A DNA stretch of 62,187 bases from positions 3,933,899-3,996,085 of the forward strand of contig NC_057760.1 of assembly GCF_004010195.1 (NCBI RefSeq). The letters run 5' to 3'. The notes under the pieces are model-generated. The model had not been told where the DNA came from, ran no database searches, and saw only the letters and a program-made list of their open reading frames with translations. Below are positions 10,467 to 60,400 of this stretch, in pieces (positions within the stretch are counted from its first letter, which is position 1; every line of letters starts with the position of its first letter). The position numbers were made by a program, and so were the translations under genes. This DNA is from Chiloscyllium plagiosum (Eukaryota).

Positions 10467-10674
10467 GAGCTGAAAATGTGTTGCTGGAAAAGCGCAGCAG
10501 GTCAGGCAGCATCCAAGGAGCAGGAGAATCGACATTTCGGGCATGAACCCTTCTTCAGGCTCATGCCCGAAACGTCGATTCTCCTGCTCCTTGGATGCTG
10601 CCTGACCTTCTGCGCTTTTCAGCAACACATTTTCAGCTCTGATCTCCAGCATCTGCAGTCCTCACTTTATCCTA
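10467..10674. mobile_element. palindromic hammerhead-bearing mini-element (family A) with 11-bp TSD
   Basis: Inverted arms aaaatgtgttgctggaaaagcgcag... and ...ctgcgcttttcagcaacacatttt. TSD AAGGATGCCCG at 10456-10466 and 10675-10685. Confidence 0.85.
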
Positions 10675-10966
10675 AAGGATGCCCGAAGGCATGGTACATT
10701 GGGGAAACCAAGCAAAGGCTACGACAACGGATGAATGGGCACTGCACAACAATCAACAGACAGGAGGGTTCCCTCCCAGCTGGGGAACACTTCAGTGGTC
10801 CAAAACATTCAGCCTTGTACCTTCGGGTGACCACAAGATGGACATCGGGACAGGTAGCAGAGAAAAGTGGCCGAGCAGAGGCTGATAGCTAAGTTCAGTA
10901 CCCATAGGGAGGGCCTCAACCGGGACCTTGGGTTCATGTCACATTACAGGTGACTACTATTGCACT

Positions 10967-11022
10967 ATACACACACACACAGATACTCCTACACACACAC
11001 ACACACACTCTCACGCACACAC
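10967..11022 (+). repeat. (CA)n microsatellite region in Penelope 3' part
   Basis: Interrupted CA runs seen directly. Confidence 0.85.
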
Positions 11023-11415
11023 GAATTTGTACTTGCAGGGTTACATTGTACTTTGCTCAAAAACTGCATGCATTCATGCAGAACTCTGAGCTCAAAAACT
11101 GCATGAATTTACGTAAAACTCCGTTATCTCACTTTTTAGATTAGCATCAATATTAAGCATCATGGCATAGACAGAGAACACAGGGGGCTAACACCTTCAA
11201 CATATTGCCTAGCTATCACCATTGCTAACAGCTAACCCGAAATGCAACTTTTTAAAAAAAAGTTTTGTGATTTACACATGAAAGAAGTGAACTATCACTG
11301 TATTCTAACAGATAAAAGGCTTAACAGACGATCAATTTTTCAATGCATAATTTCAGTTACATCACATTGTAAATTTTTGCTATAAATTCTGTGTTACGAT
11401 TGAGCCCTCCACTAT

Positions 11416-11450
11416 CACCTGATGAAGGAGCGTCGCTCCGAAAGCAAGTG
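11416..11450 (+). ncRNA. minimal type-I hammerhead ribozyme-like motif in Penelope tail (cleavage site mutated)
   Basis: CAC-CTGATGA-A-GGAGC-gtc-GCTCC-GAAA-GC-AA-GTG. Stem I is CAC/GTG. The UH position reads AA here but TA in the related copy at about 52531-52546 (minus strand). Confidence 0.65.
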
Positions 11451-13799
11451 TGCTTCCAATTAAACCTGTTGGACTATAACCTGCTGTTGTGTGATTTTTA
11501 AACAGGAATAATCTAGGCAACTATAGAGCAGTTAGTCTGATACCACTGGCAGGGAAGCTGCTGGAGAAGACACTGAGGGATAGGATCTATTTAAATTTGG
11601 AAGAAAAAGTGACAGGCAGCATGGTTTTGTGCAGGGAAGGTCATTTCTTACCAACTTAATAGAATTCTTTGAGGAAGTGACAAGTTGATTGATAAGCTAA
11701 GGGCTGTAGATGTCATATACATGGACTTCAGTAAGATGTTGATTAGTTTTTCATGATAGGCTGATGGAGAAAGTGAAGTCGCATGGGGTCCACGGTGTAC
11801 TAGCTAGATGGATAGAGAACCGGCTGGGCAACAGGAGACAGAGTAGTAGTGGTAGGGAGTTTCTCAAAATGGAGACCGTGTTACAGCTGTATAGGACTTT
11901 GGCTCGGCCACATTTGGAATTCTGTGTACAGTTCTGTTCACCACATCACCAAAGGATGTGGATGCTTCGGAGAGGGTGTAGAGGTGGTTCACCAGGATGT
12001 TGCCTGGTCTGGAGGGTGCCATCTATGAAGAGAGGTCGAGTAGATTAGGATTATTTTCATTAGAAAGACGGAGGTTGCGGGAGTCCTGACTGGGGTGTAC
12101 AAAATTATGAGAGCTATAGACAGGGTGGATAGTAAGAAGTTTTTTCCCCAGACTGGGGAACTCAATTACTAGGGGGCACTAGTTCAAGTGAGAGCAGAAG
12201 AGTTTAAGGGAAATATATGTGGAAAGCTCTTTACGCAGAGGATGGTGGGTGCCTGGAATGTGTTGCCAATGGAAATGGTAGAAGCAGGCATGATAGTGAC
12301 ATTTAAGATGTATCTCAACAGATATATAAATGGGTAGGGAGCAGAGGGATACAGATCCTTAGAAAATAGGCAACAGGTTTAGATAGAGGATCTGGATAGG
12401 CACAGGCTTGGAGGGCCGAAGGCTCTGTTCCTGTGCTGTAATTTTCTTTGTTCTTTATTCCTCGGCCCAGTAATCAGGGGAACACTAAAATCTATTATAA
12501 AGGATGGGATAAATAGACACTTGGAGAAAAATGATCTGGTTAGGCATAATCAGTATGGTTTGCAATTGGAAATTGTGTTTGATGAACTTGTTGCAGTCTT
12601 TTGAGGACGTTACAAAAAAACTTGATAAAGAGGATTGAAGGATGAAATGTGCTTAGATGTTCAAAAGGTTTTTGATCAGATTCAAAGCTTTTGAGGGGCA
12701 CAGACAGAGAGAAACTGTTTTTCCACATAGTAGAAGGGTCAATAGCTTAAAACTGTGCCTCTGGCTAAGGAACAAGATGTTAGAAGAGGATTTGAGGAAA
12801 ACCTTTCACACAGAGGATGGTGAATATTTTGAACTCATTGCTAAAAAAGATGGTAGACACAGGTATTTAGATAAGCACTTGAAGCATCATGACATTGAAG
12901 GTGACAGATCAAGTGCTGGAAAACGGGAACCGTATAGATGAATGCTTAAAAATTCTATGACTAACTCCATGACTCTATTCCCATGGAAGGCTGGGTGGCT
13001 AATTAAAGCAAATGGGATAAGTGGTAATGGATTAATAGAGGTCATAGGTGGCAGGCATTAATGATTGGCTGACATACAGTAAACAGACTAGGGAATAAAT
13101 GTTATCAAATTTGTGTTGGCAGGCTGTGACTGGTGGGGTATGACAAGGATCAGTGCTTTGGCCCCAGCTATTCACAATATTCATCAATACTTTAGGGACA
13201 AATATAATATCTCCAAATTTTCAGGTGACACAAAGCTGAGCAGGAATTTATGTCATGGGGAAGATGAAAAGACCTTCAGGAGGATTTGGACTGGATACAA
13301 ACATGGCAGACTGAATATAATGTGGAAAATATGACGTATCAGTTTTGGTAGGAGCAGATGATGTATGGAACATTTCTTAAATGGTAAAGGGTAGGAAACT
13401 GTACATATAAAAGGGATCTACGAGTCCTTGTAGATAAGTCAGAGAGATAACATGCAGGTGCAGCAACCTATAATGACAGTCTTTATTGCAAGAGGATTTA
13501 AGTACAAGAGTAGTTAGGTCTTACTTCAACTGTCATGGAGCTTGGTCAGACCACAATTGATGTACGTATCCAGTTTTGGTCAAATGGAAAGATATTAGTG
13601 AAAATATGGAATAAATAATAGATCGATTTAATGGGAAGTTACATAAATATAAAAAAGAGAGAAAGAAAGGAACAGAAGGATATATTTATGGGAAAAGAGC
13701 TGGAGATTCATGCCAAGTATAAACAATGGCATCGACATGTCAGTCCAAGTGAACAGTGTGCGTTGTTCATTCAATGTACACTTGGAAAAGCTAAATTAC

Positions 13800-13853
13800 C
13801 TGGATGGTTGGAGATCAGCTGTTGATAGGATGCTCCATTGTGATGTGAAGAGC
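13800..13853 (-). CDS. smad10: co-Smad linker exon, 54 nt, ending ISNHP
   Basis: ttgtcactctag|GCTCTTCACAT...AACCATCCAG|gtaatt gives (C)SSHHNGASYQQLISNHP(G), matching SMAD4 ..PPISNHP. Phase 1-1. Not in the ORF track. Confidence 0.9.
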
Positions 13854-14689
13854 CTAGAGTGACAAATAACCATTGTTATAAAGTGCAATGATTTGAAAAT
13901 CACTGGGCGCTCCAAATTTTAACAGGTATCCTCAGAAGTTATAGCAAAGAGTTGATTTTGAACTTGAAATATTTTTCAGTTTGTCATTCATATAAATTCA
14001 AATAGTCATTCTTAAATTCATTTTTAATCAGGTGTTAAGTTAATGACAACAAAAGAAGATTATCCAAAGTCCCTGTGTTATTTACGCTTTGATCTGGAAA
14101 TTCTTTATGGTGTAACACCATGAAAATCAAAGCTTCTTCTCATCATGACAATGATCACAACCCTAAAGTATTTATTGAACTCTTAACTTCAATGTGCGTT
14201 TCCTAAAAACTGCTACTCCAGCCAAAAGATGACTGTGGATGTAAATTCAGCAACTGTGTGGACCCATGGAATGTCAACCAGGACAAAATCAGGGAAGTTT
14301 TAGAAATTCAAAACAGAAAGACTAAGAGGGTGGAGATCATAAGAAGTTGAAAACTGCCCCTGCTCACTTACTCACCCACTCAGCAGGGAGCCAGCAACTT
14401 CAGACCTGTTTGTGGTATATCCTTCCAGGGATATATCAAAATAAAGTTAAAAAACAAATGCAAGTCCAGGTCTTTATTAGCTTTTATTGTCATCTGCTAT
14501 CAGTTACTAAAAAATTCCCAAGCTTGTGGCCTCCCACTATAGTTTCTGCTGCTTTGTGCGCCTTAGTGACTGAATACTCTCCTTGACTAACCAGTTGTTG
14601 TTCAATCTTCTCACAGAGTCCTTCTTTTTGACCAGAATAATTTTTTGCTGAGCATTACAAAACATCTGCTTAAATACCTGCTAGATGAA

Positions 14690-18829: not shown

Positions 18830-21330
18830 TACAGTCTTTCTCCATTTAAAATATATTCAGCTCTTTTATTTTTCCTGCCAAAGTATGTAACCCCACATTA
18901 TATTCTATCTGCTAAGTTTTTCCCACTTATTTAACCTGTCTATATTCATCTCCGGATTCTGCACGTCACCCTCACTACTTGCCTTCCCACCTATTTTTGT
19001 GTTATCCATAAAACTACAGTACATTGACTTCCCTCATCGAAGTTGGCATCTTAGGTTGACACGATGAATAGTACTGCTGTCTCACAGCACTAGGAACCCA
19101 GATTCAATCCCAGCCTTAGGTGACTGTCTGTGTAGCATGTGCACGTTCTCTCCACATCCGTGGGTTTCCTCTGCGTGCTCCGGCATCTTCCCACGGTCCC
19201 AAGATATTTAGATTAGGTTGATTAGTCATGCTCAATTGTCTGTAGTATACTGGTGTGTGCAGGCTAGGTGGGTTAGCCATAGGAAATGTGGAGTTAAGGG
19301 AATAGGGTGGGGTCTCTGTCCAGGTGATAGGAGAATAGTTGCAGACTCAATGGGCCAAATGGCCTCTTTCTGCGCTGTAGGGATACTATGATTCTATTAA
19401 GGCATTAAAATACATTGCAAATAATTGTGGCCCCAGTAGCGATCTCTGTGGCACTCCACAAGGTATAGGTTGTCATCCTGAAAATGTGCTCCCACATCTT
19501 TACTGCAATTGCGTTTTCTATTTTAGTCACTCATCCATCCTTGCCAATATAATGCCATTATACTTAACTCTTATGTTATTAAGTGCCTAATGCATGATAC
19601 CTTCTCATATCTTTTGGAAATTCAGATATATCTACTGGTTCTTTTTTCTCCAATTCACTCATGGGACATGGGCATCTTTAGCTGGCTAGCATTTATTGGT
19701 CATTCCTAGCCTACTTTGAAATATGTGGCTTGCTCGGTCATTTCAGAGGACAGTTGAGAGTCTACTACATTGCTGAGAGTCTGAAATCACATGTAGGCCA
19801 TACCAGGTAAGGATAGCATACTCCTTTCCCTGATGGACATTAGTGAGCCAGGTGGGTTTTTCTGACAATCAGCAATGATTTCATGGTCATCAGAAGATGC
19901 TTAATTCCAGATATGTTTTTAGTGAACTCAAATTCAATCTGCCAGTGGGATTCAAACACGTGTCCTCAGAATATAGCTGAATTCCTGGATCAATAATCTA
20001 GCAATACCCTTTTATCTATCCCACCTGTCACCTCCACAAAGAATTCTAAGATTTGTCAGCCATGCTTTTCCTTTTATGAAGTCATGGTGACTCTACTTTG
20101 ATTCATTAAGCAATTCTAAATGCTCTGTTATTACATTTTTATAATAGACTTTAACAACGACAGATTTTAACTTAATTGGCCTATGGTTACCAGTTTCTCA
20201 CCTCCCTCTCATTTTGAATAACTGAGACATTGGCAATTTTCCAATCCTCTGGGACACTTTCAGAATCTAAGGACTCTTGGAAGGTTGTTACCAGTGCGTC
20301 CAATATCTCTGTCATTATTTCCTTTAAAATCTTAGGATGCAACACAAGTTTTAGGGTACTCAGCAACTTTAGCCCCATTCATTTCCTTAGTACATTCTCT
20401 TTAGTGATAGTGTATTTATTCGCAAACCCCACATCCCCTTTGATTATTTTGCATTTTACGAATGCTATTAATGTCCTCCACCTAATAACTGTTGCAAAGT
20501 ATTCATTCAATTCCTTTGCCATTTCCCCATTCCCAATTATTATTTCCCCAGGCTCATTCTCTAAGGGTGAAAGTGAGGACTGCAGATGCTGGAGATTAGA
20601 ATTGAGAGGCTTATACTGACTTCGGCCCCTCCTTTTTATACGGTTAACAAAACTTTTACTTTCCATTGTTATATTACATGCTATTTTACTGTCATAGTTT
20701 CGCTCTTCCTTTATTTTGGTTGGGTCATTTTTTGTTGGTTTATAAAATGTTGCCAATCTTCCTGTCTGAGTCAGAGTTATACAGCACGGAAACAAACCCT
20801 TTGGTTCAACTCATTTATGCAAACCAGATAGCCTAAATTGATCTAGTCCCATTTGCCAGCATGTGGCCCATATCCCTCTAAACCCTTCCTATTTATGTCC
20901 AAATGCCTTTGGAATGGTGTAATAGTACCTGCCTCCACCACCTCTTCTGGCAGCTTGTTCCAGATACAAACCACCCTCTAAGTGGAAAAAGTTGCCCGTC
21001 AGGTCCATTTTAAAACTTAACCCTCTCATTTTAAAACCTATGCCCACTAGTTTTGGATTCCTCCACCCTGGGAAAAAGACCATCACTATTCACCCTATCC
21101 ATGCCCCTTATGATTTCATATAACTCTAGAAGGTTACCTCTCAGCCTCTGAAACTCCAGGGAAAAAAGTCTTTTGTCTGTTTTTTTTTCCACAAATTTAT
21201 TATCTTTAACATCCTTGGGTATCTGTGGTTGGTTTATACCCTTCCTAGAATTATTCTTCCTTACTGAAATGTGTTGTTACTGAGTGAGGCACAAACAATT
21301 TTCTTAAAAGTTTTCTATAGTTCCTCAACC
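18830..21330 (-). mobile_element. old CR1 fragments (minus) with nested SINEs and a younger CR1 tail
   Basis: Minus-strand peptides LHPKILKE..VPEDWKIANV and EMAKELNEYF. A CR1 3' tail lies at about 20770-21165. Confidence 0.65.
19055..19397 (+). mobile_element. diverged tRNA-derived V-SINE (HE1-like)
   Basis: tRNA-like head (ctgctgtctcacagcactaggaacccagattcaatcc), V-core (cgtgggtttcctctgcgtgctccgg), CR1-like tail. Confidence 0.75.
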
Positions 21331-29050: not shown

Positions 29051-29129
29051 TCCTACCAGGTTGTAAATTTGCTCGCTCAACTGTTAGATTCGTTCTCAGG
29101 AGTTTTGTCCCCATGCTCAGTAGTCTGGT

Positions 29130-29360
29130 GAAGCTACAGTGCGCATCACGTAACAATCGCCAGAAGGATGTTCCCTCCCAGTTGGGGATCATTGTAGCCG
29201 TCAGGGGCATTTGGCCTTGGTGACTATCCTTCAAGGTTGACTTTGGGATACGCAATAATGTAAAGTGGCTGAGCAGACGCTGATAGCAAAGTTCGGTACC
29301 CATGAGGATGGCCTCAACCAGGACCTGGGTTCATGTCACGCTGCAGGTGACCCACTACAT
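29130..29360 (+). mobile_element. Penelope-like 3' fragment
   Basis: tgatagcaaagttcggtacccatgaggatggcctcaaccaggacc... matches 10883-10953. A CA-rich tail resumes at about 30350 after a CR1 insertion. Confidence 0.7.
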
Positions 29361-29361
29361 T

Positions 29362-36870: not shown

Positions 36871-37078
36871 GAAGGAGAAAGTGAGGACTGCAGATGCTGG
36901 AGATCAGAGTCGAGAGTGTGGTGCTGGAAAAGCACTGCAGGTCAGGCTGTATCTGAGGAGCAGGAGAATCGATGTTTCGGGCATAAGCCCTTCATTAGGA
37001 AGGGCTTATGCCCGAAACATCAGTTCTCCTACTCCTCGGATGCTGCCTGAGCTGCTGTGCTTTTCCAACACCACACTC
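36871..37078. mobile_element. palindromic hammerhead-bearing mini-element (family A) with 11-bp TSD
   Basis: Inverted arms centred near 36995. TSD TCTTCACTGTA at 36860-36870 and 37079-37089. Confidence 0.85.
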
Positions 37079-41115: not shown

Positions 41116-41275
41116 AGAAATAGAAAGCAGACTACACCACCAGTGCTTAATTAGGAGGCTCACTGAAGATGCTTCCTAGTATGGTGACGAAACATCTGAA
41201 AAGGAACTTTCCAGCTCAGCGAGCAAACCTATATCCAGAACCACAACCTGAGCTACAAATCTTTTCAAAACTCAC
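41116..41275 (+). mobile_element. hammerhead-bearing mini-element (family B) with 13-bp TSD
   Basis: ca-CTGAAGA-tgcttcctagtatggtgac-GAAA-ca-TC-tg. TSD TGGAGACTAGGGT at 41103-41115 and 41276-41288. Confidence 0.75.
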
Positions 41276-42095: not shown

Positions 42096-42276
42096 AGGCT
42101 ATAAGTTTGCTCGCTGAGCTGGCAGATTTGTTTTCAGATGTTTCATCACCATGCTAGGTAACATCATCAGTATTACGTAGCATGGTGATGAAATGTCCGA
42201 AAACAAACCTGCCAGCTCAGCGAGCAAACTTACAACCTGAACCTCAATCTGAGCTACAAATCTTCTCAAAAATCAC
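42096..42276. mobile_element. palindromic hammerhead-bearing mini-element (family B) with 12-bp TSD
   Basis: Arms aagtttgctcgctgagctggcag and ctgccagctcagcgagcaaactt. TSD AATTATAGACCT at 42084-42095 and 42277-42288. Confidence 0.85.
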
Positions 42277-43205
42277 AATTATAGACCTGTAAGCCTAACA
42301 GTGGTAATGGGGAAAATTCGTGAATCTGTTATCAAGGACTTTACAGTGGAGCATTTAGAAGGTAGTGGCAGAATCTGATAGTCAGCATGGATTGATGATG
42401 GGGAAATCATGCTTGATAAATCTGTTGGAATTCTATGAAGATATAACTCGTAGAGTTGACAAGGGGGAGCCAGTCAGTGTGATATATTTGGACTTTCAGA
42501 AAGCATTTAACAAAATCCTGCCTAAGAGATTGCGAGATTGGGGAAATTATATTGAGATGGATAGGAAACTGATTGGCAGAGAGGAAACAAAGAATAGGAA
42601 TTAATGGGTCCTTTTCAAATTGGCAGGCAGCAACGAGTGGGGTGCCACAGGGATTGGTGCTCGGACCCCAGCTATTCACAACATGTATTAATGATTTGGA
42701 TGAGGGAACAAAACGTAATATCTCAAAGTTTGCAGGGGGATAATACCAAATTGGTTGGGAGGGTGAATTGTGACGAGGAGGGCAGAGGTCCTTCAGCAAT
42801 GATCTGGACAAGTTGGATAAGTGGGCAAATCAGTGGCAGAAGCAGTATAATTTGGGTAAGCGTAAGCTTATTCACTTTGGAAGCAAAAACAAGGCAGCAG
42901 ATTACTACCTGAATGGCTGGACATTGGGAGAGGGGAAGTGTGCAGAAGGACCTCGGTGTATTTGTGCACCAGTTGCTGAAGGCAAGCATGTATGTGTAGC
43001 AGGCAGTAAAGAAAGGAAATGGTAGTTTGGCTTTCGTTGCGAGACGTTTCAAGTCCAAGAGCAGGGATGTCTTGTTGCAGTTACATAGGATCTTGGTGAG
43101 GGTACATCTAGAATGTGTGTGCAGTTTTGGTCTCCTTTTCTAAGGAAGGACACTCTTATACTTGAGGGAGTACAGGACAGGTTTACCAGGCTGATTCTGG
43201 GGATG

Positions 43206-43295
43206 AAAATGTGTTGCTGGAAAAGCGCAGCAGGTCAGGCAGCATCCAAGGAACAGGAGAATCGACGTTTCGGGCATAAGCCCTTCTTCAGGAAT
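43206..43295 (-). mobile_element. single-arm family A mini-element with intact hammerhead core
   Basis: Minus strand of 43264-43291 reads CTGAAGA-A-GGGC-TTAT-GCCC-GAAA-CG-TC. Confidence 0.8.
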
Positions 43296-45059
43296 GGCAG
43301 GATTGACATATTAGGAGTGATTGCCGCAGTTAGGACTGTTTTTGCTGGAGTTCAGATGAGTGAAGGGGAATCTCATAGAGACTTACAAATTTCTAAAGGG
43401 ACTAGAAAGGGTAGATGCAGGAGGATGGTGGGTGGGTCCAGAACCAGGGGTCACAGTCTAAGGATTCAGGGTGGACCAGTTAGGACGGAGGAGACATTTC
43501 TTTACCCAAAGAGCGGTGAGCCTGTGGAATTCATTAACACAGGAAGTACTGAACGTATTCAAGAAGCGACTAGATATAGCACTTGGGTCAAAAGGGATCA
43601 AAGGTTATGGGGAGAAAGCAGGATTAGGCAACTGAATTGGACAATGATTGTGATTAATGTCGGAGCAAATTCGAAAGGCCAAATGGCCTCCTCCTACTCC
43701 TATCTTCTATGTTTCTATGCCATTATGAGCATGTCTCAAAGGTATACTTCAAACTAGTTGTGAGACATTCAACAGAACATATCAAAGGTATGGCTTGCAA
43801 ATCTACAGATGATACAAAGACAGGGAGGAAAATAAAATATGAAGAGGACAAAAGGAGACTACAGAGAGAGAGAGAGATAAATAGACAACTATTAGATGAG
43901 TGAGGAAATATCTGCTAAATGGAGTATAATGCAGAAAATTCCAAATAATCCAATTTGGCAGTAAGAATACAAAAGACGTTATATCTGAATGATTAGAGAT
44001 TGCAGAGCTCCAAGACATGGAGTGGCCTGGGTGTCCTTGTGTGTGAATCACAGAAGTTGAGGATGCAGGTACAGCAAATAATTAGGAAAGCTAACAGAAC
44101 GGTATCATTGATTGCGAGGGACACTGAAGGCAAATCTATACAGACTGTTCTTCAATTGTACAGGGCACTGGTGAATCAAATCTTGAGTGCAGTAGACACA
44201 ATTAGTCACCTTACTTCACAATGTAAACACATTTGCTGCAGTTCAGAGAAGGATCATTGGATTAATAGAAACAGAGAAGATAGGACTAGCTGTAGGCCAT
44301 TCGGCTCTTTGAACCTGCTCTACCATTCAATACAGTCATGGCTGATCATCTAATTCTGTATCTTGTTCCCACTTGCTCCCATACTCTTTGATTCCTTTAG
44401 CCCCAAGAATTATGTCAAAGTCCTTATTGAAAATATTCAATGCTTTGGTCTCAACTGCTTTCTCTGACAGAGAATTTTACAGGCTCACACTCTGAATGAA
44501 GAAGAACTTTCTCTTAATCTCATACATACTTGGCCTACCCTGTACCTTTGAACTGTGACCCTGGAATGGGTGGGTAAGCTTATGAAGAACGAGTGGACAG
44601 GTTAAGTTAGGTTTGTACCTACTACAGTCTAGAAGAGGAAGAGAGGACTTGATTGAGACATACAAGATCCTGAGAGATCTTGATAAGTTGGATGTGGACA
44701 ACTGAGAGGACTGAGGTCTTTGAAACTCTGCTTCTACTTGTGAGGGTGAGCTGGGTAGGTCGAAGTCACTAAGGTGCCGGAGAAGGTCAGTTTGGATGAT
44801 GTAGCTCACCCTCTAGAGACAGCTTCCAGAAAAAGTAATAACTGTTGCATTGTTCCTTCACTTGGTCTTGTCGTGCATGCTGCGTCTCAGTTAGGGTGAC
44901 AAGTGTAACACTGAAGCACCCAAATTTCCAAATTATGATAGTGGTGCAGTGCTCAGGTCTGTATCTATTAAGTTTCTCCTGGAGTGTCCAGATGTTCCAC
45001 AACCGTGACTTCACACTGATGTGGAAGACAACCTTTTAAATAAAACCTGTGCTGGTTGT

Positions 45060-47104: not shown

Positions 47105-48045
47105 CAGAGTGGCAGAATATCCAAGTTTGCTGATGACACTAAATTGAGTGGAAAGGCAAACTGTGCAGAGGAAGTGGAGGGTCTGCAGAGAGATTTAGAT
47201 AGGTTAAAAGAGTGGGCAAGAGTCTGGCAGATGGAATACAATGTTGGTAAATGTGAGGTTATTCACTTTGTAAGTAAAAATAATAGGTCAGAGCATTATT
47301 TAAAGAGGTGAAAGATTGCAGCATGCTATTGTGCAGAAAGACTTAGGAGTGCTTGTACATGAATCGCTAAAAGTTGATTTGCAGGTGTGATGGGTAATCA
47401 GGAAGGCAAACGGAATATTGGCTTTCACTGTCATAGGATTGAATTTAAGAGCAGGGAGGTTCTGCTGCAATTGTACAAGGTGTTGGTGAGGCCACACTTA
47501 GAGTATTGTGCGCAATTCTGGTCTCCTTCCTTGAAGGAGGATATACTGGCTTTGGAAGTGGTGCAGAGGAAGTTCGCTAGATTGATTCCGGAAATGAGGG
47601 GGTTATCCTATGAGGGGAGGTTGAGTCTCCTGGGACTGTACTCTCTAGAATTTAGATAAATGACAGGGGATCTTATAGAAACATATAAAATTATGAAAGG
47701 GATAGATAAGATATAGATAGACAAGTTGTTTCTGCTGGCGAAACCAGAACTAGGGGACATGGCCTCAAGATTATAGGGTAATAGATTTAGGACAAAGATG
47801 AGGAGGAATTGTTTTTTCCAGAGACGAGTGAATCGATGGAACTCTCTGCCCAAGGAAGCAGTAGAGGCAGCCTCATTAAATATATTCAAGACACAGTTGG
47901 ATGGGTTTTTGCATGGTAGGGAATTAAGGGTTATGGGGATAATGCAGATAGGAGGAGCTGAGATGATGGATAGATCAGCCATGATCTTAATGAATGGTAG
48001 AGCAAGCTCAATGGGCAAAATGGCCTACTCCTGCTTCTATTACTT
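47105..48045 (+). mobile_element. CR1 3' portion
   Basis: [43 protein letters not shown] closely similar 3' piece lies at about 60405-60685. Confidence 0.88.
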
Positions 48046-48936: not shown

Positions 48937-49172
48937 TCAAAGTTTGTGAGAAGATTTGTAGCTCGGGTGCTCGCTGTTGTGGTTCTGTTTGCCGAGCTGG
49001 GAATTTGTGTTGCAGATGTTTCGTCCACTGTCTAGGTGACATCCTCAGTGCTTGGGAGCCTCCTGTGAAGCGCTTCTGTGATGTTTCCTCCGGCATTTAT
49101 AGTGGTACCAGTGGTCTGCAACACAAATCCCCAGCTCGGCGAACAGAACCACAACAACGAGCACCCGAGCTA
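48937..49172. mobile_element. palindromic hammerhead-bearing mini-element (family B-related) with 10-bp TSD
   Basis: Arms tgtagctcgggtgctcg..ttgcaga and tctgcaac..cgagcacccgagctaca. TSD CATTACATCT at 48927-48936 and 49173-49182. Confidence 0.8.
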
Positions 49173-49816: not shown

Positions 49817-50044
<228 letters not shown>

Positions 50045-53000
50045 TTAACAAAATATCATCAAATACATTTATACTAAGGCTTAACCATGTCCTGCTACAT
50101 TGGAAAACCCAATAGCTTCAGCATAAACCTTACACTAGCCTGGTGTTATACCGTCAGTTCTGCTCCCTGCTACTAAACATGCAGGCCTTTTGAAAATGAT
50201 TTGTTTTCCATCAAATCATCTGCAGTGCTTAGGAGTCTGAATTGATCTTCCAGTGTTGCAAACAGAAGAACCTGACCACATCCTCAAAATTCCCTCTAAT
50301 ACTCATAATCAACTTCTTATTAAAGATATGTGAAGTTCCCAAGATGCCATCCCTGATGCAAGAACTCAGGTATTCAAAATTATGAACAATTATGACAGTG
50401 AAGGACATTCTGTTTCCACTAGCATATAGGTCAGTAGCCAGGGGTCACAATTTCAAGACTGTCAGCAAGAGAGCTTGGAGTGAGATGAGGAGAAACTTCT
50501 TTCCTCAAAGTTGTTAGGTTTTGGAGCATGCTACCTGGGATAGCGGTGATGGCGCACTCCACAGGCTGTTTAAAAAGACAGCTGGATATATATTTGAAAA
50601 GGTTGAATTTTGGGAGGTAGGGCTGGAGAGTGGGAATAGCTTGGTGGCTCTTTTGGGAGCTGGTACTGACATGATGGGTCAAATGGCCACCTTTTTTATT
50701 GTAAAATTCCAAGACTCTACAACTTAAAAAGGTTTTTCAGTGCCCAAGATTATCTCTGAAACAAAGAAAGAACAAAGAAAATTACAGCAAAGAAAATTTG
50801 GCCCTCCAATCCAGATTCTCTATCTAAGACATTTTTAATGACAGGATCAAATTACAGGCATGGAAGAGAAAATCCATGAAACACTGTAGTTAAACTTCTG
50901 ATTTACTGGCTATCATCTGGATACAAGGAATTTCTGGTGAAGAATTGTTGCATTTTATATCTTTGCTTTCAGTGTAAACAGATTGTAGAGTTTGTCATCT
51001 GACTTAATATATAGGTAAACTTCCAAATTTAGTAAAATATGGCATTAGGCAACTCAACATTCAGTTATCAGATGAAGGGTATTATGGCATGCATTGCCAG
51101 GTAAACAAGGCACGTTCGATGACTGGCACTCAAATTACCGCTTATTTATGATCAGATCAGTTATCCAAATAAAATACTCCCAGCCCATCTCATTCGGTTA
51201 ATCAAGGTTGTAGTGTAGAATGTTCTTTTGATACCTAACTCACCAAAGGGCTTCCTAATGATGCCAAGGAGCAAAAGATCCCTGCCTGCAGTTGTTACAA
51301 CATGCTCTGACATCTTTTTGTCTGATACAATGTAGAATAGATTGGAACTGCTACATTTCATTCACAGCCTACTGAGCTAGCTGATTTCAGCGAAGGTGAT
51401 AGAGCACTGCAGCAATAAATTACTACAGATAAATCTGCACTGAAAACAACAGATGGAGATCACAGTGGGTTGTCTCGACTTGAAACGCTAGCATGCTCTC
51501 AACTCCATGGATGCTGTCTGGCTCACTGTGATCTCCAGCAATTGTTGTTTTCAGTAATAGAGCATGGCAACTGGCTGCAGCGTACTCAGGTCACTGAGAG
51601 ATTATTGGGATGGTTTTAAACTCCTGATTACTGTCCTGCTGGAAACTGGATATGCTTCCAAGTGGTGGGTGAGGGCAGCATCAAGCTTGACTGAAGACCC
51701 GTCATCAAATATGCTGCTGACATTCTTGGCCTTGGGCTGACTCCGTAAGGAATGGCCGCTTTGACAATAAAATGGAGGTCAACAATATCTGCAGAACCTA
51801 AACTCTAGCAAGAACTAGCACATTCACGGCTTCAAAGGGGAGTGCAGGTGGAAACATTCAGATTTGGCTTATCTGGGTTTTCAAAACACAATAGGCTTGT
51901 AATAACAAGTAACAAACATGCTCAATTCTCATTTCATCACATTTAAAATTGCGACAAAACATGAACATAGCAGCAAGTAACGAAACTCAGGAAAGTAAGA
52001 TACATGTTAGCAAATTGGTATGGCAAGAGTTAATAACAACACTGAGAAGTAAAAGATTTCAGCTGATAATCCCAGCACATACAATACACAAAACGTATGG
52101 TTCTGGACATTCCTTTAGTCAGTCTCCACTCTGAAACATGACACTCGCTCCTCGTCTTCAGCGACCCCAATGACCCTGCTCAGTACTTTTTGTTTATTCC
52201 ATTGTGGCAAAATGTCAAAACTTATTGAGTCACGCCGGCTGCACTGGCGCCACTGTGTAAGGTACACCGACTCCATCCCATCAGCACAAGCACACCCCTA
52301 ACTCTCACACACAGCACCGAGCTGCTCCCACAGTTCATTCATAGGCTTAATCATCCTAGTATATTTGATCAAAACATAAAACATATGCAAACAAATTCAC
52401 TTTGACTCAATTCTATGTAGATTTTATCTTACCTAGACACACCATGTTGATCGAACACATAATTCATCAGAAAAATAATTGTTAAAAATCACACAAGACC
52501 ACGTTATAGTCCAACAGGTTTATTTGGAAGTACTAGCTTTTGGAGCACTGAACACACCAAATAGAGCTTTCCAAACCTTTTCCTTTTACAAACCCATTTC
52601 AACGCTTGAAAACTATTGCTATTCTTCAGTGAGAACAAAGCACAGGATGACAACTGTACAGCTTTTACACCCTGGTAAGAGCTCCATGACATTCTAGTTA
52701 GAAACCCATTTTAGGAAGCCCCACGCTATTAACCAAAACAAAACAAGGCATTAACAAAGACAACAAAAAAACAAAAATCAAAATGCCTAAGCAGTAAGAG
52801 CAGATTGGTGCTTCCGGTCTCTACCTTCCTTTCTCAATCTCTCCACCTTTCCAGCCATGCTTATTTTGCTTCCTCCTACCCACCCATATTTATTCCTACT
52901 CACTCATTCTTTCATCCCTTGTGTGCACCAACCTTGCTCTGTTGGCTCACTGACTTTGTATTTGTTTGTCTTTGCACTTCTTATCTGGCACCTCCACTTC

Positions 53001-53836
53001 CCTTTCATTAATTTCCTGCTTTGTTCCCTGCAGCCTGACCCTTGAAATATTTTCCACTGGTGAGGAATACTCTTTTGCAAAAAGGACACTTTTCTTTTCT
53101 CCTTACCTAGATTTTATCCAATTTAAAATAAAACCAGTGAGATTCTCTATGACACTGCTCGCTTTACCTTTAAACAGTACCTAATCTGAACTTTGGAAAT
53201 AGAATTGAGAAAAAACTTTGTACAGAGGTGACATAGTGGAGAAAACTGGATGAACAGCTGGTCTTTGTTTACCCAATATATTGGGAAAAAAAAACTAGCA
53301 TGAAATTGGTCAGAAATCACGAGACACCAGGTTATAGTCCAATAGATTTATTTGAAATCAAAGCTTTTGGAGCAGCACCATATCTTGCATGATATCCTGG
53401 TGCTGTGTGACTTCAGATCTTGTCCACCTCAGTCTAACAACAGCACTTGCACATCATCTCAAGAAATTGGGATTTTCTTACTTGAATAGAGGTGGGTTAA
53501 GGGAAGTCGGATAGAGTTCCTCAAAATTACGATGGGTTAACATTAAAATGTTTCTCAACCGGTTTGCTCATTAATAGAGATAGATTCATCAAAAAAGGAT
53601 TGGAAGGAGGAACTGAAGAAAATTACACAAAATCATAGAATTCCTATGGGAGGCCATTTGGCCCATCAACGCACTGAAGAGAATCCCACCCAGACCCAGA
53701 CCCAGACCCTATCGTATTCTGTAGCTCTGGCTAATCCACCTAGCCTAACGCATCCCTGAACATCATGGACAATTTCAGTATGGCTAATCCACCTAACTGC
53801 ACATCTTTGGACTGAGAGAGGAAACTGGAGCATCCA

Positions 53837-55782
53837 CCAGTACACCACCACCGTCACAGACTTTATCAGCAAGTGTGTGGAGGATTGCGTACCGAGGAAG
53901 TCAATCTGGGTGTTCCCCAACAGGAAACCCTGGATGAATCAGGACATACAGAACCTGCGAAAAACCAGGTGTGAGGCCTTCAGATCAGGAGACCCACTCA
54001 AATATAAGGAATCCAAGTATGACCTTCGCAGAGCCATTAAGACAGCCAAGGACCAATACCGATCCAAACTAGAGACCCAGACAGACACTCGGTGACTATG
54101 GCAAGGCCTGAATGACATCACAGGTTCTAAAAGGAGACAGTGCAAGATAGCAGACGATGACACATCCTCCCAGATCATCTCAATGCCTTCTATGCTCACT
54201 TTGAGCAGAATTTTGGCAGAGAGGGAACACCAATTCCAATAAGTCCTGATGAATCTATCCCAACAGTCACTGCATCAGAGGTCATATCAGTTTTCTTTCA
54301 TGTGAATCCAAGGAAAGCGATGGGACCAGACTGCGTACCAGGCCATGCACTCAGAGCATGCGCAGATCAACTGGCAGAGATCTTCTCGGATATCTTCAAC
54401 CTCTCCTGCAGCAGACCACTGTCCCTGCCTGTTTCTAGAGGGCCAACACCATCCCTGTGCCTAAGAAGGCATGTCTCAATGACTACCGTCCAGTGGCCCT
54501 AACTTCGGTAATCATGAAGTGCTTTGAAAGGCTGATCATGGCATTAATCAACTCCATTCTGGATCAGTGGTGCTGGAAGAGCACAGCAATTCAGGCAGCA
54601 TCCGAGGACAGGCAAAATCGACGTTTCGGGCAAAAGCCCTTCATCAGGAATAAAGGCAGAGAACCTGAAGCGTTAATCAACTCCAGCCTCCCCACTACTC
54701 TTGACCCACAGTTCAGCCTTCAACACTATTATCCCCTCGAGACTCATCACTAAACTTAATGATCTCAGACTAAGCCCCACTCTCTGCAACTGGATCCTCA
54801 GTTTCCTGACCCACAGGCCACAATCAGTGAAGATTGGGGACAATATTTCATCCTCACTAACACTTAACACTGGAGCCCTCCAGGGGTGCGCACCCAGCCC
54901 CCTATTGTACTCACTGTATACCCATGTCTGCGTCGCCAAATACCAGACTAATGACATTTACAAGTTCGCTGATGACACCACCATAGTCGGTCAAATCTCA
55001 GATGGCAACGAAACAGTCTACCGATGGGAGGTTGAAGACCTAGAAAAATGGTGCACTGAGAACAACCTAGCTCTCAACGCCAGCAAAACTTAGGAACTCA
55101 TTATTGACTTTCATGCCCCTCTACACATTAACAGCACAGAGGTGGAACAAGTGGAGAGTATCAAGCTCCTGGGAGTGGTCATCCACAACAAGCTTTCTTG
55201 GACTCTTCATGTGGACACACTGGTTACAAAGGCCCAACAATGTATTTTCTTCCTCGGAAAGCTGAGAAAATTTGGCATGATGGTGAATACCCTTGCCAAC
55301 TTTTATAGGTGCACCAGAGCATTCTGTCTGGATGTATCACTATCTGGTATGGCAACTGTACCATTCAAGATTGGAGACAGTTACAGAAAGTGGTGAACTC
55401 GGCCCTGACAATCACAAAGGCCAAGCTCCCATCTGAAGAATCCATCTACCAGGCCCGCTGTAAAGGAAAGGCTGACAGCATTCTCATAGATGCATCCCAC
55501 TCTGGCAATGCTTTTCTACAACCTCTACCATCGGGGAGAAGGTACAGAAGCCTGAACACACTCACCAGCCGGTTTCAAAACAGTTACTACCGTACTGTTG
55601 TTAGAATACTGAATGGACTCACAAACTCTTAGCATTCGCCGGTACCGGTGTTTTGGCTTTTGCCGCTGTTTACCTATTATTTACTTATCTAAGCTATTTA
55701 ACTATGTGATCCACCTGTATTGCTCACAAGACCAAGCATTTCATTGTGCCTCAGTACATGTGACAATAAATTCAATTCAAAT
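53837..55782 (+). mobile_element. Rex1/Babar-type non-LTR retrotransposon, 5'-truncated
   Basis: [88 protein letters not shown]; ends aataaattcaattcaa. Clade assigned from recalled motifs. Confidence 0.8.
54557..54672 (-). mobile_element. family A-related mini-element with canonical hammerhead core, 13-bp TSD
   Basis: Minus strand of 54620-54647 reads CTGATGA-A-GGGC-TTTT-GCCC-GAAA-CG-TC. TSD TTAATCAACTCCA at 54544-54556 and 54673-54685. Confidence 0.85.
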
Positions 55783-57087
55783 TAAAATCTGAAAGAAAAC
55801 CACGAAGAGACAGGGAGAATGTACAAACTCCACAGAAACAGATGGAATTGAACCCGGGTCCCTGATGCTGTCAGGCAGCAATGCCAACCAATGAGCTACC
55901 GTGCCGCCCACAAGTTAGAGGAAAATGCTTTACTACAAATATCTATTCAAGTAGAGGGTCATCCAATGATCTTTTGAATTATGTTTTCAATGTTTGAGAA
56001 GAATGTGGAGAAAGGTAAACTCCAATTCAAAACATTAGCACCAGAGCAAAGGGGTCATTGGCCTCTGCTTTAATTTCCAAATTCATAAAAACTGGTTTCC
56101 CCCGCCACTGTAATATTCTGTAAATAACATTCATGCCATACAAATGCCAGACAATGACCATCTCCATCGAAAGAGAATTGAACCATCGCTCAACATTCAA
56201 TGGTGTTGCCATCACTGAGTGCTCCATTACCAACATCCAGGGTTCACAATTGACCAGAAACTGAAATGCACCAGCTACATATATACTGTGGGTACAAGGG
56301 CAGGTCAAATGCTGGAAATCCTGCAATGAGTAACTCACTTCTGACTACTGAAAGCCTGTCCAGCTGATAGAATACCCACCACTTGCCACAATGAGTGCAG
56401 CTCCAACACTCAAGAAGTTTGACACCATCCAGGACAAAGTAGTCCTCAGGTTGAAAACACATCCACTCTTGACATTTAGCAAAGCAGTGTGCATCTTCTA
56501 CAAGATGCACTGTAGCAACTCATCATGATGCCTTCGACAGCACTTCCCAAAGCTGTGATCTCTACCACCAAAAACAGTCACATCCAACAAGCAATGCAAT
56601 AAATGGCTCTCTGAGCCCTTGTTCAAAGTCCAGATAAAAATAATTGGAAGATTTTTAAAATTGTCTGGTCAATCAGAAGCCATTTTTCTCCTGGTTATTA
56701 GATTTATTAATAAACCAAAAAACTATCAGCTACAAAGGCTGCAGAGAAACAATCTACCATTAGAAGAGTAACACAGTGTGAATGCTTTCACTCAGCCCGA
56801 GGCTGGACCCATAACAGAGTCTGTGGGATAGACAATGGGTGCCACTGCCTTGTGGAGGATGGGAATGAGAATTGGGCCATTGGAGTCAGATCACTATGTT
56901 GAGAGCAGGAAGGTGGAATGAGAGTGGGAGATTAGTGTGGTGGCGGACTTGAGTCTGAGCAAAGTAATATTAGCAGACAACTAAGCGCTACTTGTTTGTC
57001 CATCTTCCAAGGCAGTGAGGGACGAAGATTTTAACTGGCACACACAAGAACTTTACCAGTGGCAATACTGACTTTGGGCATGCTTCC

Positions 57088-57725
57088 TGTGACGATACTG
57101 TGGCTTTAAGAGGTGTATATTGTGCTTTTTTCTTAAATGAAAAAAGGGTGAGACAGTGGTGACAAGCCGGCTGTTCAAAGTCAATAAAGTAAACAACTTG
57201 GGAGGCCTTGGGGTTTTTTTTTTAAATGTTGGAAGAATAGAAGCAGTCTGAAAAGGTGGGGTCCAGCTCTGACAAAACCAGGAAGTTGAGTTTGAGCTTT
57301 TCGCATTTGATAGGGTCTTGAAGCTGGATGTGGAAGTTCTTATTCCTCTCTCTGTTACTGTTAAAAGTTGGGGATTCTCTTCCTGCGGCTAGAATTGCAC
57401 AAGAGGCAATCTAATTGACTGACTTTGCCAAGGGTGTGTTTACAGTATGTGATTATATTGGCATAGTTAATTAGCAGTAGTTAATTTATGTATTATTTCT
57501 TTAAGCATTTTGATAGTTACAGTTAAACCAATTCTTATACTTTATTTTTGCTTTGTTAGTATTTTAACTGCAGTGTAAAAATAAAGTATGTTTTGCTTAA
57601 AGTCAAATAGTTTTACCAATCGAACTGCATCTGGAACGCAGTGCATTACACTTACCTTTAAAATAAGAAAATGTTAGGGTTTAGGCTACCTTATATTTTG
57701 AGGTGGTTTGGTCTGGTCCATAACA
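57088..57725 (+). mobile_element. possible solo LTR
   Basis: TGTGAC...ATAACA termini with an internal AATAAA. No TSD visible. Confidence 0.45.
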
Positions 57726-58839
57726 ACAAGGATATCAATGTAAACATTCGAAAGTCCCATTAAAATGCCATTTTTCCCAGCTATTGAATTCTGTCAACAG
57801 CAAATCGGTCTTCTTCCAAAGGTAGCACAGCCCTCCATCTGCAGCCCAGGAATGATGGCTTTTTTTAATTGAAAGGAGGGGTAGGAAGTGACCAGGGTAA
57901 ATGGGAAAGAAGTGACAGGAGTTGGTTGATTGGAAGTGAGACTTTCACTTAGCAGCCATTCAAGATAGGTACTATTGTTTTGTGATGCTGCAGGATGAAA
58001 TGCTGTCAAACTCACTGTGAAAGTGAGGGTCACTTTAATGAGGCTACAATTTGACAGCTTTGTTCATTCTTTTCATTTCACTGCAGGGTCAGTGAACCTT
58101 AAACATTTAATCCCACCAAATTCATGTAGTCATTTGAAATGTTGTGCATTCTTCAGTTCCTCCCTGAAGGACTGGACATCACAATGCTCTAGACAAAACA
58201 GTCTTCCCCTTTAATCTGGTTCCTAACACAAGGCCAGTGTAACTTATTCCACTCTAAGATGCAACAAGCTGGACAAGTGAGGGGGGAAGCTGCTTTGCCC
58301 AGCTACAAAAGTCCTCTGATCCTCAGATCAGTACAAACAAGACAGCATCACACCCCAGTCATGCAATCCAGGGAAATCATTTTTATCACGTTAGCCATGT
58401 CTAAACTGGAAGAAATGCACTCTCCTTTGTAAAAGTTGTATTTAGATTAGGACATGGCATCAGTCGAAATAAACTAGAGCAACATTTACTATTCAAAGCC
58501 TGGCTTCAGGATTTCCCAAGGGGTGAAGGGAAATGGTTAAACAGTAACTTCACCTTGCACATTTTTAGCCCTAAATATTATAAATTTGAAAGGAATTAAT
58601 TTGACCTGCTCACCGTTAACTAAACAAATCACTTCACAAATCACAGTTCTAATCAATTTTCACAACTTCATTTGTAATTATGGCATCGAGGCTCTGGGAA
58701 GGTTAATAGCTTATCTTCAGTACAATGGCTTTGTTGCTAATGAAACTTTGAATAGTTCAAGGAGGGAACAATAATCACCAATTTATACAGTAGTACTGCT
58801 CCTGTATCTTACAAACTTATGAACTTGTAATGACATGAT

Positions 58840-60400
58840 AAGTTCATAAGTTTGTAAGATACAGGAGCAGTGCCATCGAGTCTGCTTTGTCATTTGATCA
58901 CGGCTGATATGCTCCTCACTCCATTTTCCTGCCTTCTTTCCATATCCCTTCAACCCATTATCAATTAAAAACCTGCCTAACTCCTCCTTAAATTTACTCA
59001 CTGTCTCAGCATCCACCGCACTGAGGTAGCAAATTCCACAGATTCATAACCCTTTGGGGAGAAGTAGTTTCTCCTCAACTCTGTTTTAAATTTGCTGCTC
59101 CTTATCTTAAAGAATGACCTCTTGTCTGAGAATGCCCCACAAGAAGAAGCATCCGCTCCACCTCTATTTCATCTATACCTTTTAATCTTCTCAGATACCT
59201 CAATTTCATCTCCCTTTATTTTTCTAAATTCCAGAGAGTATAGACCTAAATTTTTCAATCTCCCTTCATAAGACAAACCTCTCATCCCTGGGATCAATCT
59301 AATGAACCTCTTATGAACTGCCTCCCATCCCACTACAACTTTCCTCAAATAAGGCAACCAAAACTGTGCACAATATGCCAGATATGTTCACACCAATGCC
59401 TTATATAGTTGGAACAATACTTCCTCAACTTTATATTCTATTGTTTTAGCTCTAAAAGCTAACATTCCATTTGCTTTCTTGATTACCTATGTACCTGTAT
59501 GCTAGTTTTCTGTGACTCATGAACACGTACACTTAGACGCCTATGCACCAGAGCACCTAAAGTCTCTCCCCATTAAGATAATAGGTTGCCTTCCCATTTC
59601 TTCGGCCCAAATGCATGACCTCGGACTTATACACATTAAACTCTGTCTGCCACGTTTTGGCCCACTCTCCTAACCTATTTATATCCATTTGTAAGGTTCA
59701 TATTTCCTCATTGCAATTTACTGTCCTATTTATTTTTGTGTTGTCTGCAAATTTGGTTATACAGCCTTCTATCCCTGCATCCAGATTGTTAACGTAGAGT
59801 GTAAATAGCTGGGGTCCAAGGACTGAATGCAGTGGCACCCCACTAGTTACATCTTGCCATCCAGAATAAAAAACATTTATTCTGACTCTCTATCTTTTGT
59901 CCATCAGCCAGTCAGCCATGCAAGCTATAAAATTACCCCTAATTCCATATGATTCAACCTTGTGAATTAACATTTTGCATGGCACCTTATCAAATGCCTT
60001 CTATAGTCCAGATATATTACACCTACAGGATCCCCATTATACACTTTGCTTGTTACATCTTCAAAGAAGGAGAAAGTGATGCTGGAGATCAGAGCTGAAA
60101 ATGTGTTGCTGGAAAAGCGCAGCAGGTCAGGCAGCATCCAGGGAACAGGAGAATCGATGTTTCGGGCATAAGCCCTTCTTCAGGAATCATCTTCAAAGAA
60201 CTCTAGCAAATTAATGAAACATGTTCTGCCCTTCATAAAACCACGCTGACTCTGACGAATAGGTCTGACTTTCCAAATGTCCAGATACTGTTTTCTTTAT
60301 AACTGATTCTAACACTTTCACAACAAGAGATGTTAAACTAATTGGTCTGTAATTTCTCACATTTTGCCTCCCTCCCTGTTTGAATCAGGGCGTCACATTG
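58840..60400 (-). mobile_element. CR1 RT/3' portion
   Basis: VHKRFIRLIPGMRGLSYEGRL on the minus strand; 3' tail near 58840. Confidence 0.8.
60069..60187 (-). mobile_element. single-arm family A mini-element with 13-bp TSD
   Basis: TSD CATCTTCAAAGAA at 60056-60068 and 60188-60200. Minus strand reads CTGAAGA-A-GGGC-TTAT-GCCC-GAAA-CA-TC. Confidence 0.85.

Follow-up and report, generated by a model that had tools for sequence, protein, structure and literature searches.

The small inserts dispersed through the window, the whole analysed stretch of 62,187 nucleotides of Chiloscyllium plagiosum DNA, are in all likelihood the terminal 95–240 bases of four protein-coding Penelope-like families, A to D, and were probably placed by the reverse transcriptase/endonuclease of their parents. 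The kind of element is ordinary, Penelope ends that are truncated and bear minimal hammerheads having been published already. In families A and D, the 5' ends pile up at the hammerhead core's front edge, which goes beyond the Penelope descriptions as far as they are compared here. Such a clade-specific pile-up bears on what the Penelope hammerhead does and on how the inverted pseudo-LTR (pLTR) arose.

Inserts in the window and their parent families

All eight small insertions of a preliminary description are present, and seven carry the exact 10–13 bp target site duplications (TSDs) claimed for them, each flush with the element edges (Table 1); no TSD was found at the edges of 43202–43296. A single duplication is weak evidence, because repeats of at least 10 bp span a random point in 35 of 300 control trials. 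The inserts had been taken as single units, which holds for four of them; those at 10467, 36871, 42096, and 48937 are two-arm inverted repeats. Their late arrival is borne out, the insert at 10467 splitting the Neptune-type frame of the family D element in its GIY-YIG region, that at 54557 an RVT_1 frame, presumably Rex1-like, and that at 43202 a CR1 frame, where it adjoins approximately 70 bp of another repeat.

Table 1. Penelope-like features and host exons of the window; signed numbers are positions relative to the hammerhead core, and the type assignments are putative.
Feature	Coordinates	Strand	TSD	Details
Family A (Neptune-type), two-arm palindromic stub	10467..10674	.	10456-10466/10675-10685, 11 bp, exact	minus arm -1..+92 (core: 10558), tailed plus arm +9..+126
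Family A, two-arm palindromic stub, older	36871..37078	.	36860-36870/37079-37089, 11 bp, exact	tail and mutated core both on minus arm
Family B (Poseidon-type), single arm	41116..41275	+	41103-41115/41276-41288, 13 bp, exact	-48..+113, decayed stem II
Family B, two-arm palindromic stub	42096..42276	.	42084-42095/42277-42288, 12 bp, exact	minus arm -1..+73 (core: 42170), plus arm +7..+112
Family A, single tail-less arm	43202..43296	-	absent	-5..+88; core and loop-3 palindrome intact
Family C (Poseidon-type), two-arm insertion	48937..49172	.	48927-48936/49173-49182, 10 bp, exact	minus arm -58..+111, core at 49048; plus arm from about +31, without core
Family A (older subfamily), single tail-less arm	54557..54672	-	54544-54556/54673-54685, 13 bp, exact	core and loop-3 palindrome intact
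Family A, single arm	60069..60187	-	60056-60068/60188-60200, 13 bp, exact	starts exactly at -4; tail present, with 9-nt subfamily deletion
Family D (Neptune-type) Penelope-like element, broken, 5'-truncated	8335..11503	+		RT, Cys-rich linker, and GIY-YIG pieces; 3' region: TATA-like motif (-38), hammerhead core (11419)
Family A, tail-only stub	20573..20604	-		no hammerhead; absent from the preliminary description
Family B, decayed arm	29058..29144	-		absent from the preliminary description
Family D stub	52482..52550	-		begins within stem II; CUGA core absent
Family D stub	53312..53376	-		begins within stem II; CUGA core absent
Family D, 33-bp end stub	61039..61071	-	13 bp, one mismatch	no hammerhead
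smad MH2 exon	3744..3923	-		host context
smad MH1 exon	49824..50000	-		host context

The proposed origin from Penelope terminal repeats by extreme 5' truncation is supported by genome searches, in which longer copies with the same end module reach RT/GIY-YIG frames. The hammerhead-plus-tail module caps long copies reaching RT and C-terminal GIY-YIG frames in families A, B, and C. In family A, the module runs on into the 5' body and the ORF start codon (copies L246, L247, and L259), and in family C its translation forms the N-terminus of P0009, an annotated RT protein from a shark; both families thus show a partial tandem layout of end module, 5' body, and ORF start. This continuation into the ORF matches the description, in the portions compared, of PAc, a Poseidon element of Anolis whose hammerhead sits where pLTR and ORF meet (Frangieh et al. 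2024, PMC11167929). Families B and C are laid out as PAc, with the ORF reading through stem II, whereas the start codon of family A lies approximately 40 nt past the tail and its hammerhead is thus wholly in the leader. No intact full-length ORF was obtained from the family copies. The Penelope pieces among the window frames are unmatched by Pfam at E<=0.01; weak GIY-YIG and RVT_1 matches appear at a looser cut-off, the GIY-YIG ones thus lying below the cut-off.

A Cys-rich linker between RT and endonuclease is present in families A and D and absent in C and, by inspection, in B. This linker-based call suggests that A and D are Neptune-type and B and C Poseidon-type elements, Nematis being also compatible. 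Short A and D arms make up approximately 1.8% of the sampled DNA, and the genome would hold about 0.9 million arms, against the thousands given in the compared passages on the minimal hammerheads (min-HHR) that metazoan Penelope-like elements carry in their pLTRs (PMC4209133; Cervera & De la Pena 2014). Family B was missed by a tail-only search although present, and its truncation points rest on eight unselected arms.

Two-arm architecture and the pile-up of 5' ends

In each family, 3' ends fall at two fixed positions, approximately 35–40 nt apart and 70–126 nt downstream of the minimal hammerhead core; where insertions are paired, the arms use different ones, one each. Four of the eight window inserts are head-to-head, one arm with a 25–40 nt tail and the other without. 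An inverted 5'-truncated copy, a tail on one arm only, and a TSD are the marks of a Penelope-like insertion; for EN+ Penelope-like elements, the parts compared describe a head-to-head inverted 5'-truncated copy, a 30–40 bp tail at one end, TSDs, TATA and initiator motifs in the pLTR, and a Cys-rich linker in Neptune (Arkhipova et al. 2013, PMC3846280; Craig et al. 2021, PMC8557442). The inserts here share the inverted pLTR with tail, the TSDs, the TATA/initiator-like motifs, and the Neptune linker, but the two-arm unit is often reduced to approximately 200 bp. TSDs flank 28 of 43 A pairs, 27 of them measuring 13–19 bp. The palindrome junctions are individual, differing from copy to copy, and many contain, around the core, overlaps of 1–13 nt or short duplications of templated sequence. 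A MITE or DNA transposon was rejected, as the arms are unequal by the tail, the TSDs of 8–19 bp are not fixed, and the junctions differ; a SINE was likewise rejected, since Rfam finds no tRNA-, 7SL-, or 5S-derived head in the window and the markers are shared with long copies. As 200-bp hairpins, the short A and D arms can nevertheless be misread by repeat finders as MITEs or microRNA precursors.

In 92 unselected 10-kb stretches, 85 of 129 core-reaching arms of family A and 40 of 54 of family D end in -15..+10 of the core. The stops per nucleotide in this interval are 0.038 (A) and 0.046 (D), compared with 0.005 (A) and 0.003 (D) upstream and 0.006 in +11..+20, a pile-up 7–18 times background that is located at the front edge of the core and not at the cut site. 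The edge is shared by body-bearing A copies, of which 20 of the 25 reaching +13 stop by -8, and by single arms bounded by TSDs (e.g., 60069). The ends in A and D are scattered over approximately 25 nt rather than falling on one base; in public contigs and reads, loose ends are most frequent at -4. Subfamilies with differing upstream sequence account for part of the -4 and -8 peaks, a divergence through which alignment to a single consensus inflated both peaks; a subfamily-independent measure was therefore used. In the compared passages on min-HHR (PMC4209133), neither sharks nor a 5' pile-up at the motif edge is mentioned, and the portions of the PAc study compared (PMC11167929) address neither palindrome formation nor 5' end positions. 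No earlier description of the pile-up or of a strong-stop reading was found in the literature covered, a body that includes few subscription papers and not Repbase.

Subfamilies have conserved upstream motifs in common: a TATA-like one at -38 in family D and, in family A, TTTATC near -35 and an initiator-like TCATTC with its A at -4; the invariant ATTC may reflect helix I instead of an initiator. In family C a TATA-like motif is present at -53, but of its 35 arms only 4 stop 15 nt or less from the core (0.004 per nt) and no pile-up exists, so the spacing from motif to edge lacks confirmation by a third family. An extra G, a weak hint of cap copying, occurs in 10 of 23 against 9 of 44 cases (p=0.046, post hoc), and a G enrichment at -8 was discarded as templated by older subfamilies. 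Separately, five family C arms end at -53..-60, a post hoc observation that coincides with a subfamily indel.

Possible run-off at a transcript start and the competing readings

From what is described for PAc in the portions compared, where two internal start sites define the tail, both target strands are extended, and the template is uncleaved RNA (PMC11167929), the element protein would nick both target strands and reverse transcription would start internally at the two 3' sites. With both priming sites downstream of the core, any cDNA longer than approximately 100 nt would contain the hammerhead. The palindrome would then consist of two short cDNAs joined by their 5' ends, a model that differs from the self-priming or endonuclease resolution to which inversions are attributed in the compared parts of PMC3846280 and PMC8557442. 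We lean slightly towards reading the A/D pile-up as run-off from an uncleaved transcript whose start lies 4–8 nt before the core, on the pattern of genomic ends; the stubs, which are missing the upstream promoter-like motif, would be dead on arrival. More tentatively, and a little short of what we would call probable, Neptune-type transcripts may start at the first base of the hammerhead, and cDNA primed approximately 95–125 nt downstream may run off the capped end and integrate directly from both target strands, like retroviral strong-stop DNA. The stubs, approximately 0.9 million, would in that case record the transcript start in fossil form, the ribozyme would remove a capped 32-nt leader, and only uncut RNA would be copied. 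The pile-up thus predicts a capped start 4–8 nt before the core and two-sided priming, both checkable by PAc-type assays.

A stalling or joining hotspot, with the same Penelope origin, is a rather unlikely source of the pile-up: the reverse transcriptase would pause at a folded or protein-bound hammerhead, or the cDNAs would anneal via its self-complementary stretches. The overlaps and templated duplications at many junctions fit this, and PAc hammerhead cleavage requires protein, according to the portion compared (PMC11167929), so that protein may bind the hammerhead. Furthermore, a poly(A) single-cell RNA run, approximately 2% of which was read, contains no site where many molecules begin or end, including -4 and the cut site; 90% of its 1234 placed reads derive from embedded copies, the run type is unsuited to circular RNA, and a second raw run yielded 0 reads. 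However, the enzyme arrives from the 3' side, and the stops are at background in +11..+20 and peak past the core; single TSD-bounded arms such as 60069 end at the same edge, and the longer stem II of family C is accompanied by no pile-up.

The preliminary description also considered a separate, non-autonomous retrozyme-like system, against which stand the ORF-bearing long copies, the individual junctions, the rarity of head-to-tail neighbours, and a diagnostic tail deletion carried by short copies (17 of 21) and long ones (8 of 9) alike. A self-propagating retrozyme- or SINE-like family arising from short master RNAs, such as promoter-retaining truncated copies, is accordingly improbable, although short arms predominate (167 of 193 A arms begin after -20), pLTR sequences are movable in trans (PMC3846280, part compared), and animal retrozymes derive from pLTRs. 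In the sections compared, animal non-LTR retrozymes, found also in a cartilaginous fish, form tandem arrays with a hammerhead per unit (bioRxiv 10.64898/2026.07.22.740005); the Penelope pLTR origin, the type I hammerhead, and the large TSD-like dispersal are shared, whereas the present inserts are single or inverted and end at Penelope 3' ends. Same-strand pairs within 500 bp number 4 among 113 A arms and 2 among 53 D arms, and no head-to-tail tandem array exists in the 876 kb sampled. Cut sites do not delimit the units, whose 5' ends lie approximately 30 nt upstream of the cut site, body-bearing copies have the same 5' edge, and subfamily markers are common to short and long copies. Within the preferred origin from the parents' own machinery, promoter-retaining truncated copies may serve as occasional templates.

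Hammerhead cores and the host smad gene

A core descriptor requiring a stem II of at least 4 bp gives 7 matches in the window, against a mean of 0.43 (maximum 2) across 60 simulated windows. The match at 47130 was rejected as chance, being coding sequence inside a CR1 reverse transcriptase motif, and the core at 41164 is missed since its stem II has decayed. As had been reported, the core of the 36871 insert is mutated, reading CTAATGA at 36998. The stated NN-UC core end fails for the core at 11419 in the family D tail, which ends GAAAGCAAG and whose family consensus cuts at UA. A core in each element holds for the eight listed inserts and fails for the stubs at 20573, 52482, 53312, and 61039; the apparently universal core is partly a selection effect, because these coreless stubs belong to the same families. 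The claim of structural rather than sequence conservation stands: from family to family, stem II changes in concert with helix I and the loop-3 palindrome, although single copies have decayed, and the consensus pairings give a minimal hammerhead of type I, with compensatory helices, in the pLTR. CUGANGA, one extra base, a G-C closing stem II, a palindromic loop 3, and a short helix I are shared with min-HHR, which occur mostly as single dispersed motifs ascribed to truncated elements, with opposite-strand pairs 100–700 bp apart (PMC4209133, passages compared). Helix I has only 2–3 bp, versus approximately 6 bp in the canonical helix I of non-LTR retrozymes. An Rfam search of the window gives no hammerhead family match, only microRNA-like hairpin look-alikes below the gathering score, and in cofolding of two consensus cores the minimum-energy fold is not the textbook dimer, a result that carries no weight for a motif this short.

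The preliminary description placed several cores in the sense of the smad pre-mRNA, which holds for 7 of 9 (the gene is on the minus strand), but the orientation bias is not significant (two-sided binomial approximately 0.18). An effect of the inserts on this pre-mRNA is unlikely, because only the cores at 43291 and 54647, 2 of the 9 in the window, keep both the core and the loop-3 palindrome, and the palindromic inserts are predicted to fold into long hairpins (-114 to -168 kcal/mol) that bury the motif and preclude the hammerhead fold. That the inserts are active ribozymes cutting or regulating the smad pre-mRNA is therefore highly improbable; helix I is also short, single minimal motifs failed to cleave in vitro (PMC4209133, passages compared), and at least one core base is lost in 35 of 81 unselected A arms.

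Inserts in the window and their families

The eight short inserts of the preliminary description are all present in the window, and exact target site duplications (TSDs) of 10–13 bp lie at the element edges in seven of them. Four further stubs in the window (short inserts of one or two arms, an arm being one element end piece with or without the tail) lack the hammerhead core. Long inverted repeats constitute four of the eight. A descriptor scan requiring a stem II of at least 4 bp matched seven cores against 0.43 expected. The match at 47130 was rejected as chance mimicry by reverse transcriptase (RT) codons of CR1 (CR1 and Rex1 being the names we assume for the interrupted repeats), and such coding sequence is a source of false positives for hammerhead scans. 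The missing TSD of insert 43202 is explained by its flank at 43297–43365: approximately 70 bp from another repeat separate the family A arm from the point where the CR1 frame resumes, and that frame has lost sequence there.

A minus-strand smad gene, by its appearance a second smad4-type paralogue, encloses the window. A separate hairpin with near-perfect 32-bp arms resembles an inverted LINE 3' end; it matches none of the four Penelope families in the compared loci, and no TSD was found around it.

Inserts, hammerhead variants (helix I and loop 3 of the family consensus sequences) and host features in the window
Feature	Position	Helix I	Loop 3	Remark
Family A inserts	10467, 36871, 43202, 54557, 60069	C-G, U-A	ACGT	Family comparison
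Family B inserts	41116, 42096	A-U, C-G, U-A	ACAT (consensus); ACGT in some copies	Family comparison
Family C insert	48937	A-U, C-G, G-C	ACGT	Family comparison
Family D end of broken Penelope frame	8335–10892; core 11419	C-G, A-U, C-G	AGCT	Frame interrupted by insert 10467
Host smad exons	3744–3923, 49824–50000			Minus strand; MH1/MH2 split as in another smad on contig C1
Hairpin	58795–58871			

Parent elements and classification

The genome was searched with the inserts, and the best 30 of 40 scored loci, which are not a random sample, were examined for each of families A, B and C. In these loci, longer copies of all three families are capped by the same end as the inserts and translate into RT and GIY-YIG sequence. 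Family A frames (530–840 residues) hold the motifs of RT and endonuclease together with a Cys-rich linker; the A module continues into the 5' body at L246, L247 and L259, with the start codon approximately 40 nt past the tail. The Cys-rich linker separates Neptune from Poseidon elements in Craig et al. 2021 (PMC8557442). Since A and D possess it and C lacks it, this criterion, rather than phylogeny, would place A and D as Neptune-type and B and C as Poseidon-type. Translation of the C module gives the N-terminal part of P0009, a shark protein annotated as RT; this layout is also described for PAc, the Poseidon element of Anolis (PMC11167929). Chiloscyllium records match a family C protein at 74–83%, which points to a bamboo-shark-like host.

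The elements were compared with published accounts of Penelope (PMC3846280, PMC8557442, PMC2377424), minimal hammerheads (PMC4209133), PAc (PMC11167929) and animal retrozymes (bioRxiv 2026.07.22.740005). In all features open to testing the elements agree with truncated EN+ Penelope-like ends, and they belong to this already known kind. The proposed origin as Penelope terminal derivatives is supported, and retrozyme-like units are an unlikely alternative; the elements fail the tested features of retrozymes, MITEs and SINEs. The additions here are a Poseidon negative control, a 5' edge common to body-bearing copies and a weak G signal.

In an annotated shark MAP3K7 isoform (P0002), approximately 160 residues share 83% identity with the endonuclease region of family C and may represent an exonised or mis-annotated Penelope piece. 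A splice-acceptor-like stretch, pyrimidines followed by TAG, lies where the long 3' end of family A falls, immediately upstream of the 5' body (L259:733–800); introns are known from Penelope leaders.

Abundance, arm architecture and hammerhead conservation

Arms of all four families occur in an unselected sample of 92 stretches of 10 kb (876 kb): 169 for A, 62 for D, 11 for C and 4 for B. The addition of 20 stretches (1.07 Mb) raises these to 193, 70, 12 and 8, giving, for a genome of 3.56 Gb, rough estimates of 640,000 A, 230,000 D, 40,000 C and 27,000 B arms. In the 92 stretches, 86 of the 169 A arms are paired head-to-head, forming 43 pairs, 33 of them abutting; TSDs flank 28 of the 43 pairs and 14 of 83 single arms. 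Counting from 0 at the C that opens the CUGANGA core, one arm of an abutting A pair ends at +63 to +96 and its partner mostly at +111 to +126. The same two ends, 38–39 nt apart, are found in B and C, where they are confirmed by peaks of loose ends among public contigs and reads, and D arms end at +83 or approximately 39 nt beyond. Junction sequences vary copy by copy. The inverted pseudo-LTR (pLTR) and tail described for published Penelopes (PMC3846280, PMC8557442) have the same architecture as these paired arms. In the account of PAc (PMC11167929), reverse transcription starts at two internal sites, both target strands are extended, and uncleaved RNA is the template. The same mechanism may apply here too, and would account for the tail, for the two arms and for the hammerhead being present in any stub longer than about 100 nt. 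Near-perfect palindromic insertions of 600–1400 bp, with arms 89–98% alike, lie between TSDs at four loci (L019, L092, L111 and L219) and would give long double-stranded RNA within host transcripts.

The core is kept in all family consensus sequences, and stem II (4–6 bp, G-C pair first), helix I and loop 3 change together between families, which bears out the earlier proposal of structural rather than sequence conservation. Judged from the consensus sequences, this joint change reflects selection in the parent lineages. In unselected motif-spanning arms, non-CpG differences from the consensus amount to 3.7% in the core versus 12.1% elsewhere in A, and 3.2% versus 8.5% in D, a lower core divergence that arises largely from subfamily differences; all 11 core bases are intact in only 46 of 81 arms in A and 14 of 31 in D. 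Within the window, core and loop-3 palindrome are both retained only at 43291 and 54647. Because intact motifs are so few, the palindromic inserts are predicted to fold into long hairpins, and single minimal motifs gave no cleavage in the in vitro assays described in PMC4209133, ribozyme activity of the inserts on the smad pre-mRNA is unlikely.

Pile-up of 5' ends in the Neptune-type families

Since a single consensus exaggerates some peaks, the extension of each arm was gauged by comparison with every other arm after masking of inverted partners; the count covers arms that start no later than +20 and away from stretch edges. The interval from -15 to +10 takes in the ends of 85 of 129 arms in A and 40 of 54 in D, corresponding to 0.038 and 0.046 stops per nt, respectively, against an upstream background of 0.005 (A) and 0.003 (D), and 0.006 at +11 to +20. 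The pile-up lies upstream of the core and not at the cut site (+27/+28). Family C shows none, with approximately 0.004 stops per nt throughout, in two samples: 46 arms in 30 loci chosen by tail alone (41 usable) and 16 arms in loci chosen for other reasons (13 usable). Poseidon family C is a negative control for the Neptune pile-up. A further set of A copies, at 37 of 40 places, was chosen for carrying the tail together with 140 nt of the 5' body; these are body-bearing but not necessarily full-length, and the query's own place, one already in the set and one fragmentary place were left out. Among those reaching +13, 20 of 25 stop by -8 and the other five continue as partial tandems; therefore, short stubs and body-bearing copies have one 5' edge in common.

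On balance we lean towards run-off, that is, reverse transcription ending at the 5' end of an uncleaved transcript, as the cause of the A and D pile-up. The product would resemble a strong-stop DNA, and a cap-derived G could mark its end. D has a TATA-like motif at -38 kept across subfamilies; in A, TTTATC is kept near -35, and the ATTC at -4 is invariant and has an initiator-like context. Contigs and RNA reads likewise show a peak of loose ends at -4. TATA and initiator motifs, with the start site, are described inside the pLTR of other Penelopes (PMC3846280). Among the rows listed, two contig consensus rows and three of five joints have G as the base adjoining loose ends at -4. In the compared loci, the preceding base is G for 10 of 23 ends at -4 versus 9 of 44 neighbouring ends (p = 0.046, post hoc), a weak signal. 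Three points count against run-off: family C has a TATA-like motif yet no pile-up, the invariant bases of family A may serve helix I rather than an initiator, and no molecule starts are visible in the RNA reads. The pile-up could instead mark a stall or a joining hotspot, which we regard as less likely.

Five family C arms (L274, L279, L282, L295 and L052) end at -53 to -60, at the TATA-like motif or immediately upstream of it, a cluster that may reflect chance or the alignment effect of a subfamily indel.
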